A stretch of 32,000 nt of DNA. Origin: an uncultured archaeon (lineage in GTDB: Archaea > Asgardarchaeota > Thorarchaeia > Thorarchaeales > Thorarchaeaceae). Positions 1,051 to 2,126 of the stretch are shown piece after piece. Under the pieces are notes generated by a model that was given only the letters and a program-made list of their open reading frames with translations, had not been told where the DNA came from and made no database searches. The stretch spans positions 218,075-250,074 of the forward strand of contig CAYHAA010000001.1 of the NCBI GenBank assembly GCA_964354495.1, read 5' to 3'. The position numbers were made by a program, and so were the translations under genes. Position 1 is the stretch's first letter, and every line of letters starts with the position of its first letter.

Positions 1051-1380
1051 GTGCGTGACTTGAAGACAGAACCAATCGTGTCAGAGGCGGAGCATTCCGA
1101 CATGATTGAGATTGTTCTCTTCAAATCCGATTCATGTGCGTTCTGTCCGAGGGCTGAAGAAGTGGTGATAGAAACAATTAATGACTTTGGACCTGGTATA
1201 TTCAAGCTAACAGTCATCAATGTCAGTGAGAATCCAGAGGCTGCTGAAGAATACGGCATCTTTGCCTTACCAACAGTAATGATTGGAGGCGTATCAATCA
1301 CTGGTATTCCCGAACCGGAGATGCTTATGAAAATGGTACTCGGAGCCAAGGTCATGATGAAGAAGAAGGGTGAAACCTGA
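1051..1380 (+). CDS. Thioredoxin-family protein (CAFC) with KaiB-like core
   Basis: CxxC (SCAFCPRA), cis-Pro motif ALPT. Its TGA (1378-1380) overlaps the ATG of the next gene. Start could be GTG 1051 or TTG 1060 (AGGAG upstream). Confidence 0.85.
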   Translation: MRDLKTEPIVSEAEHSDMIEIVLFKSDSCAFCPRAEEVVIETINDFGPGIFKLTVINVSENPEAAEEYGIFALPTVMIGGVSITGIPEPEMLMKMVLGAKVMMKKKGET

Positions 1381-2126
1381 TGAGCGATTATGTAATAGAC
1401 CGAGTAAAGACTGGCATTCCAGGTCTTGATGAGCTGATAGAAGGAGGTTTTCCAAAGGGAGACACCATCCTTATTGCGGGAAAAGCTGGCACCGGCAAGA
1501 GCATACTTGCGACTCAGTTCATCTACAAAGGTGTCACTGAGTATAATGAGCCAGGAGTGTTTGTGACGCTAGAAGAGCCTCCCAGGCTGATCAGAAGGAA
1601 TATGCTCAGATTTGGTATGGACCTTCAAAAGCTCGAGAAAGAGGGCAAGATCTCAATTGTGGACCTCTCCCCCTCTAAGGAAGCCACTCCTGTCACATTG
1701 GTGGAGTATCCGAGTTTCGACCTGTCTGGTCTACAGGCGATAATAATGAATCACATCAAGAAGATCCATGCTACTCGCGTTGTACTTGATACCCTCTCGA
1801 TTATGGCTTACAAATTTCGAAGCCGGGATATTCTCAGGGAGGAATTCTTCAAGCTCGCAGCCAACATCACGCGAACTGGATGCACACTCCTGATTACGAG
1901 TGAGATTCCGGCACAAGAAACAGGATTGGGCGTCTTCGATATGGAGGCCTTCTTGGCATCAGGCGTGATAGTTCTCTATAACGAGAAGATATCCGATACA
2001 TCCCGCTCTCGTTCAATTGAGGTCCTCAAGCTCAGAGGCTCCAAACACAGTTCGAGGATACACTCCATGCGAATCACAGACGAAGGTATAAGAGTCTGGC
2101 CTGGCGAAATCAGTCCTGGAAGCTAG
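1380..2126 (+). CDS. Single-domain KaiC/RAD55-family ATPase, predicted active
   Basis: RVKTGIPGLDELIEGG, Walker A GKAGTGKS, catalytic FVTLEE, RVVLDTLS, Arg finger KLRGSKH. Confidence 0.93.
   Translation: MSDYVIDRVKTGIPGLDELIEGGFPKGDTILIAGKAGTGKSILATQFIYKGVTEYNEPGVFVTLEEPPRLIRRNMLRFGMDLQKLEKEGKISIVDLSPSKEATPVTLVEYPSFDLSGLQAIIMNHIKKIHATRVVLDTLSIMAYKFRSRDILREEFFKLAANITRTGCTLLITSEIPAQETGLGVFDMEAFLASGVIVLYNEKISDTSRSRSIEVLKLRGSKHSSRIHSMRITDEGIRVWPGEISPGS

Follow-up and report, generated by a model that had tools for sequence, protein, structure and literature searches.

A conserved thioredoxin–KaiC gene pair in Thorarchaeia suggests a redox-dependent partner for a single-domain KaiC-type ATPase

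A thioredoxin gene coupled to a KaiC-type ATPase gene

A 32,000-nt stretch of DNA from an uncultured archaeon of the family Thorarchaeaceae (assembly GCA_964354495.1, contig CAYHAA010000001.1, positions 218,075 to 250,074), hereafter the window, contains a gene pair that encodes a small thioredoxin (Trx) and a KaiC-family ATPase, here called KaiC1. All coordinates are positions in this window, which lies within a 3.3-Mb genome that is 97.7% complete. The trx gene (1051–1380, + strand) has a GTG start and encodes a 109-aa protein of the small MJ0307 type, the CAFC redox motif of which (C29 and C32) is located at 1135–1146 (+). It is followed by the gene for KaiC1 (1380–2126, +), a single-domain, CI-like ATPase of 248 aa (PF06745, 242.8 bits). 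An earlier note on this DNA had reported that the stop codon of the first gene overlaps the start codon of the second, and the two open reading frames confirmed this: a TGATG at 1378–1382 (+) holds both the TGA of trx (1378–1380) and the ATG of KaiC1 (1380–1382), and a GGTGA sits 7 nt 5′ of that ATG. At the other end of the trx gene, an AGGAG abuts the annotated GTG start at 1051 (window 1045–1062). A TTG at 1060 is better spaced from the AGGAG and may be the actual start, in which case the N-terminus would be three residues shorter; the first 15 residues are variable and disordered.

The pair stands within a row of co-oriented genes. Downstream of KaiC1 lies KaiC2 (2138–2851, +), a degenerate KaiC-like protein of 237 aa (PF06745, 99.4 bits) that belongs to the iKaiC family (DUF7504, PF24336; 45 bits against 27), and a profile search of the genome identified KaiC1 and KaiC2 as its only strong KaiC-family matches. 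The last gene of the row (2910–5207, +) encodes a 765-aa helical-repeat protein, described here as TPR-like because it has weak matches to Pfam TPR_19 and TPR_12 and because a feature search of a protein atlas led to TPR clusters at 0.90–0.92. The first gene encodes a Roadblock/LC7 protein (575–958, +; Pfam Robl_LC7, 30.8 bits), and divergent from this operon is the gene for a Rab/Ras-like small GTPase (2–454, −; Pfam Ras, 142 bits), whose C-terminus extends beyond the window.

About 40 Thorarchaeial genomes were sampled for the cluster. All 43 genomes of the family to which the window belongs, and the single sister-family genome, have an orthologue of Trx (E < 1e-24); KaiC1 orthologues are found in 42 of the 43 and, again, in the sister-family genome. 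Beyond the Trx orthologues there is a steep drop in score, from 84 bits to the 51 bits of generic thioredoxin domains. Trx is 60–90% identical across the whole family, and the KaiC1 orthologues share 64–96% identity (74–96% across Thorarchaeaceae). Every Thorarchaeial locus examined displayed the order GTPase(−)/Roadblock/Trx/KaiC1/KaiC2/TPR-like, with the GTPase gene in the same position and orientation and the Roadblock gene kept upstream of trx. Stop and start overlap (by −1, −4, −8 or −20 nt) in 34 of 39 distinct orthologous Trx/KaiC1 pairs, and the genes of the remaining five pairs are 0–7 nt apart; the overlap is evidently not a product of chance.

Synteny across Asgard genomes, a check proposed in the earlier note, revealed that the pairing is strictly conserved in Thorarchaeia and recurs in two other Asgard lineages. 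In Atabeyarchaeia/Njord-type genomes, Trx-KaiC is followed by a Gtr1/Arf-like GTPase, and a TPR protein is encoded nearby. The locus of one Atabeyarchaeia genome (G012, L069:4535–9134) has Trx-KaiC preceded by proteins of 139 and 152 aa without a Pfam family, with a Gtr1/RagA/Arf-like GTPase on the 3′ side and a convergent gene for a 433-aa TPR protein; here too, a small GTPase and a TPR protein accompany the pair, with different genes in these roles. In the third lineage (G025 type), the row consists of a CAFC Trx, a KaiC and a KaiC2, preceded by an additional, divergent Trx-like gene of the CxxS type (L071:6174–6527, −) that has CSRS in place of CxxC. No Trx-fold gene was found within 2 kb of any of the 20 nearest other Asgard KaiC-like loci. 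The Trx-linked ATPases group together in an Asgard-only KaiC tree (support 93/89), and their loop motif, D-x-S-P/A ... E-x-P-x-F-D/N-L, differs from that of unlinked Asgard KaiC-like proteins. At the genomic level, we regard the Trx–ATPase partnership as real.

The thioredoxin and its likeness to KaiB

The structure of Trx predicted by AlphaFold2 (mean predicted local distance difference test [pLDDT] 81.7) displayed a disordered N-terminal tail, a β-α-β-α-β-β-α fold and a basic C-terminal tail. A Foldseek search with this model returned thioredoxins at the top, and fold-switched KaiB (fsKaiB; 5JYT) at rank 24 with a template modelling (TM) score of 0.58. On Pfam Thioredoxin_3 (PF13192) the protein scores 34.4 bits, above the gathering score of 24.8, and 27 of 28 family members match this profile. 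Its score on NCBIfam TIGR00411, the MJ0307-family thioredoxin, is 56.8 bits, below the equivalog cut-off of 92.75, and it is best classed as a relative of that family and not as an equivalog. The best solved relative is the MJ0307 thioredoxin itself (1FO5, E 6e-14). When solved structures were searched with the family profile, 1FO5 scored 79 bits and 1NHO (Mt0807) 64 bits, and KaiB was absent among the top 60 solved relatives.

The profiles for KaiB gave a different picture. Pfam KaiB (PF07689) matches Trx at 24.1 bits, short of its gathering score of 27, and does so over residues 49–76 only, that is, over 28 positions of the hidden Markov model (HMM); the NCBIfam models TIGR02654 (18.3 against 145.3 bits) and NF006798 (17.2 against 110 bits) also remain below cut-off. 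A profile-to-profile alignment using hhalign joined the Trx family with 72 unlinked small thioredoxins at 99.9% probability (score 181, 94 columns) and with 70 KaiBs at 91% probability (score 43, 47 columns). The weak Pfam KaiB match is found in 28 of 28 Trx family members, and weak KaiB-HMM matches occur in 27 of the 78 nearest unrelated small thioredoxins drawn from all of life. With a cyanobacterial KaiB HMM of our own, the Thorarchaeial Trx proteins reached about 17–24 bits (median 16.9) and small thioredoxins a median of 3.9, and the other KaiC-linked Trx lineages scored only 6–13 bits. P0236, one of those 27 and a thioredoxin without a KaiC link, yet obtained 20 bits on this HMM, and another small thioredoxin (P0224), on a contig too short to show its neighbour, obtained 21 bits.

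The earlier note had described a KaiB-like core in Trx, on account of a 28-residue segment said to be 14/28 identical, without gaps, to KaiB of S. elongatus. The KaiB 28-mer given there is found letter for letter in many cyanobacterial KaiB genes, which were fetched by DNA pattern for this comparison, and the count was reproduced, with 14 identical residues for 51 KaiBs and 13 for 19. The core is nevertheless not specific to KaiB, since the MJ0307 thioredoxin (1FO5) is likewise identical to Trx at 14 of the same 28 residues. Searched alone, the segment gave 28.5 bits for MJ0307, 22–25 for other thioredoxins and 18–20 for KaiB. KaiB stands apart on a long branch of the Trx tree, in which the KaiC-linked thioredoxins fall inside a poorly resolved radiation of small thioredoxins, so that the affinity to KaiB suggested in the earlier note did not survive the HMM and phylogeny check: Trx belongs with the ordinary small thioredoxins of archaea. 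The neighbouring gene points the same way, as a protein of the KaiB type would be expected next to a two-domain KaiC and the partner here is a single-domain protein of 248 aa. Because comparisons of profiles, solved relatives and trees all favour the small thioredoxins, we assign the 109-aa protein to the thioredoxins and not to KaiB, and its likeness to KaiB is the β2-α2-cis-Pro motif shared throughout the superfamily. A special affinity of Trx for KaiB had been considered as a candidate and was ruled out by the profiles, the solved relatives, the segment search, hhalign and the tree.

KaiC1, its loop and the predicted complex

KaiC1 possesses the Walker A motif GKAGTGKS, the catalytic TLEE, the Walker B motif VVLD and the arginine finger LRGSKH, all of which are invariant in alignment A3, as are its residues G34, G39, K40, E65, D137 and R219; both its score and its catalytic motifs place it in the KaiC family ATPase domain (PF06745). 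Consistent with the resemblance to CI proposed in the earlier note, it scores 183 bits against the CI half of solved KaiC and 75 bits against the CII half, and it shares the motifs DxSP and FDLS[AG]L with CI. It falls well outside circadian KaiC proper (TIGR02655, 164.5 against 546 bits; NF006799, 208 against 408 bits), having one domain and no CII phosphorylation module. All sampled Asgard one-domain KaiC homologues, KaiC1 included, group with CI and not with CII in the tree, and the likeness to CI is therefore not special to KaiC1. KaiC2 retains an intact Walker A motif and has DV where the catalytic EE would be expected (alignment A2), and it contains no cysteine.

Between DLSP and FDLSGL, KaiC1 has a loop that aligns with the B-loop of KaiC CI, to which KaiB binds, and is four residues longer. 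The earlier note had placed a loop in this position at about 1674–1715; we locate the B-loop equivalent at residues 96–115, LSPSKEATPVTLVEYPSFDL, encoded at 1665–1724 (+). It is disordered in the monomer model (pLDDT 48 for the block of residues 101–110), and its F113 and D114 align with F122 and D123 of KaiC, substitution of which weakens the binding of KaiB and SasA (bioRxiv 10.1101/2020.06.17.158394).

A complex of KaiC1 with Trx residues 16–109 was modelled with a separate alignment for each protein and with three controls. The model placed Trx on the B-loop equivalent and scored 0.77, as compared to 0.00 for the best control; 58 of 80 solved complexes attained the score mark, as did 2 of 110 mismatched pairs, counts that are rough here since own alignments were used. 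Contacts agreed to 97% or more between the three runs, with a pLDDT of 85 or higher for the partner. The predicted interface on KaiC1 comprises residues 94–96, 100, 102–121, 123–124 and 145–146, which correspond to the B-loop. On Trx it comprises the CxxC loop (24–35), the end of β2 with helix α2 and the cis-Pro loop (58–75), and β3-β4 with the start of α3 (77–95). The contacts of lowest predicted error join F113, D114 and L115 of KaiC1 to A72, L73 and P74 of Trx. In the clock proteins, fsKaiB touches CI chiefly via its C-terminal half and the B-loop (PMC6378743). Binding of Trx to KaiC1 through this interface is supported in silico only, and the model is evidence for a likeness of the predicted binding mode rather than for actual binding of the pair.

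Both cysteines of Trx and its cis-Pro, P74, are invariant (alignment A1), the cysteines being present in 30 of 30 orthologues, and CxFC together with the cis-Pro is also found in the Trx partners of the Atabeyarchaeia and G025 types; selection would therefore maintain a redox-capable site in this protein. The ATPase side differs in this respect. Several orthologues have T or A in place of C168 of KaiC1, and one KaiC1 lacks cysteine altogether, so that, with none in KaiC2 either, KaiC1 as a disulfide substrate of Trx was ruled out. Roadblock has a single cysteine, C78, which is kept in 28 of 30 orthologues. With the CxxC inside the predicted interface and no cysteine conserved in KaiC1, the most straightforward interpretation is that the binding of Trx to KaiC1, or its release, most likely depends on redox state.

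The genome has two genes resembling thioredoxin reductase (TrxR). Its best Thioredoxin_3 match (49.8 bits) adjoins one of TrxR type (304 bits; G000 C2:27628–29166), and these two genes probably constitute the housekeeping Trx system, for which reason the KaiC-linked Trx would be an extra copy. The window itself encodes a second small Thioredoxin_3 protein of 126 aa (9608–9988, +), the gene of which overlaps the start (9985) of that for NrdD, the anaerobic ribonucleotide reductase (713 aa; PF13597, 457 bits). This locus ends at 12126 and looks like a dedicated pair of a redoxin and its client.

Interpretation and comparison with known systems

We lean, at somewhat better than even confidence, towards the interpretation that Trx is the dedicated partner of KaiC1, docking on its B-loop equivalent, with cysteines that make the binding redox-dependent. 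This interpretation builds on the observed gene order, gene coupling, family assignments and motif conservation. Within the small MJ0307-type thioredoxins of archaea, Trx would be a specialised paralogue, co-translated as a dedicated partner with the catalytically intact, single-domain, CI-like KaiC1. Its active-site face, made up of the CxxC loop, helix α2, the cis-Pro loop and the β3-β4 hairpin, would dock on the flexible loop of KaiC1 in the mode of fsKaiB and the SasA N-domain on KaiC, and its cysteines would serve as an input through redox-dependent binding or release rather than to reduce the ATPase. The pair would be the core of the row of Roadblock, Trx, KaiC1, the putative pseudo-ATPase KaiC2 and the TPR-like protein beside the Rab-like GTPase. 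The row looks like a KaiC-type signalling hub, and the gene order suggests a link of the GTPase to Trx-KaiC1.

A number of observations weigh against this interpretation. The evidence for binding comes from a single structure prediction with three controls. Similar complexes have already been solved (fsKaiB-CI, 5JWO and 5JWQ; SasA-trx-CI, 6X61), and since KaiC1 is close to CI, the favourable model may in part reflect memory of these structures. The three KaiC-linked Trx lineages do not form a single clade in the Trx tree, itself poorly resolved. No residue signature was found that divides KaiC-linked from unlinked small thioredoxins; F31 of Trx, for instance, recurs in 28 of the 72 unlinked proteins. 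When cyanobacterial CI and CII are added, the KaiC tree becomes a polytomy in which support for the Trx-linked group falls from 93/89 to 61/39, on account of which a single origin of the Trx-KaiC pair is only possible. Lastly, an invariant CxxC and cis-Pro would equally be expected of an ordinary working reductase, and gene coupling may simply mark a reductant and its client, as the second thioredoxin of the window is coupled to NrdD.

The last two points lead to the alternative that Trx merely shares a transcript with KaiC1 and reduces some other client without forming a stable complex with the ATPase. Sequence, profiles and fold all place Trx among the MJ0307-type thioredoxins, the genome's TrxR-like genes fit such a role, and the conserved C78 of Roadblock offers a cysteine; the complex model would then owe its score to the solved KaiB-CI and SasA-CI structures. 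This alternative has to account for the absence of a conserved cysteine pair in KaiC1 and KaiC2, for the persistence of the Trx-KaiC adjacency in three lineages with otherwise differing neighbours and its absence at the 20 other KaiC-like loci, and for the family-wide identity of Trx, which implies an unusually tight constraint on its entire surface. The complex score relative to the best control, roughly benchmarked as it is, also argues against it, and we judge it rather unlikely. Considerably less probable, in our estimate, is a redox-independent structural role, in which Trx would attach to KaiC1 through its active-site face purely for assembly or regulation, with cysteines that serve only the fold or the interface. 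The predicted interface is indeed the active-site face with no cysteine opposite, thioredoxin folds free of cysteine (KaiB and the SasA N-domain) perform such binding, and the G025-type locus has its extra CxxS gene. Those purely structural binders, however, have lost their cysteines, whereas Trx retains both in every orthologue and in two distant lineages.

The earlier note had proposed a redox-gated, KaiA-less proto-KaiBC module. Of that proposal, the conserved pairing, the CI-like ATPase and the predicted docking on the B-loop were upheld and the redox gating is a matter of inference, but its evolutionary claim was not upheld, given the polytomy of the KaiC tree. That Trx is a true relative or ancestor-like form of KaiB and makes a KaiA-less timer with KaiC1 and KaiC2 is, to our minds, very improbable. 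This reading would draw on the hhalign probability of 91% over 47 columns, on the weak Pfam KaiB match in all 28 family members, on the higher median of the Thorarchaeial proteins on the KaiB HMM and on the DxSP and FDLS[AG]L motifs common to KaiC1 and CI. Against it stand the scores below the Pfam and NCBIfam cut-offs, the low scores of the other KaiC-linked lineages on the KaiB HMM next to the 20 bits of an unlinked thioredoxin, the separate long branch of KaiB, and a KaiC tree with CI and CII in which the Trx-linked clade is not adjacent to CI. The ATPase, moreover, is a single domain without the CII phosphorylation module, and no result bears on timing. A bolder extension of the dedicated-partner interpretation, which we think improbable, is that Trx-KaiC1 survives from a kind of partnership ancestral to KaiB/SasA-KaiC, in which reversible, redox- and ATP-gated capture of the B-loop would feed, via KaiC2 and the TPR-like scaffold, a Roadblock/Rab-like GTPase switch.

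The dedicated partner that we favour can be compared with the complexes of KaiB (5JWO, 5JWQ, 5N8Y) and SasA (6X61) with CI. In these a partner of the same β-α-β-α-β-β-α fold sits on a CI-type B-loop, as is predicted here; the hot spot there is the FD of FDLS, with F122/D123 of KaiC corresponding to F113/D114 of KaiC1, and the partner gene adjoins the ATPase gene in both. Unlike KaiB, Trx is a CxxC thioredoxin of the MJ0307 type that keeps both cysteines and the cis-Pro, and it displays no sign of a ground-state/fold-switch pair. Unlike clock KaiC, KaiC1 is a one-domain protein that lacks CII and phosphosites and comes without a KaiA. The genomic context differs as well, being one of histidine kinases for Kai/SasA and of Roadblock, a Rab-like GTPase and a TPR-like protein here. 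KaiB is reported to occur only with full-length KaiC (Schmelling et al., 2017, PMC5520375). The closest relatives, MJ0307 and Mt0807 (1FO5, 1NHO), have the same minimal fold, CxxC-P motif, cis-Pro and G-x-P loop. In contrast to them, Trx has CAFC, carries an extra charged tail at its N-terminus as well as a basic tail at its C-terminus, and is fixed in a KaiC-like operon, with the probable housekeeping Trx/TrxR pair elsewhere in the genome.

Other systems resemble parts of the row. The proposed archaeal KaiC-like hubs (PH0186, 2ZTS; PH0284, 2DR3; ArlH) have the same single RecA-type KaiC domain, and they too come with an inactivated paralogue (iKaiC, DUF7504) and with genes for putative inputs and outputs. 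Makarova, Galperin and Koonin are said to have proposed archaeal single-domain KaiC-like ATPases as signalling hubs in mBio in 2017; the literature searched makes no mention of a Trx partner of one-domain KaiCs, and that paper may already name one. Thioredoxin of E. coli in complex with T7 DNA polymerase (1T7P) is a case of a real thioredoxin acting as a stoichiometric subunit, its active-site face on a flexible loop of an enzyme that uses nucleoside triphosphates. That case differs in that the client is unrelated, the pair is one of host and virus, and the role has no need for redox chemistry. The start of the cluster, where a Rab/Ras-like GTPase gene lies head-to-head with a Roadblock gene, recalls the MglA/MglB-type switches and Thor-Rab (7EZB), the report of which names neither KaiC nor thioredoxin (Tran et al., 2024, PMC10933270).

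Archaea are rich in KaiC-type ATPases, for which a role as signalling hubs has been proposed; to our knowledge, almost nothing has been established about their inputs. If the dedicated-partner interpretation is correct, redox state read at the B-loop would provide a concrete and testable input to a one-domain KaiC. The binding mode of KaiB and SasA would also extend beyond the cysteine-free KaiB family and the two-domain clock KaiCs, which bears on the evolution of the cyanobacterial clock partners from proteins with a thioredoxin fold. Located beside a Rab-like GTPase and Roadblock in a close relative of eukaryotes, the module could connect a eukaryote-like GTPase switch with the redox or energy state. 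The proteins of the cluster are all small and soluble, hence amenable to bench work.

Two further features of the window lie outside the row. A gene for a 698-aa EF-2/EF-G-like GTPase (5215–7311, −) is convergent with the end of the TPR-like gene, and such a neighbour is also found 3′ of the cluster in other Thorarchaeial genomes. At 16272–19782 (+), the window encodes two tandem NosD/right-handed β-helix proteins of 576 and 564 aa.

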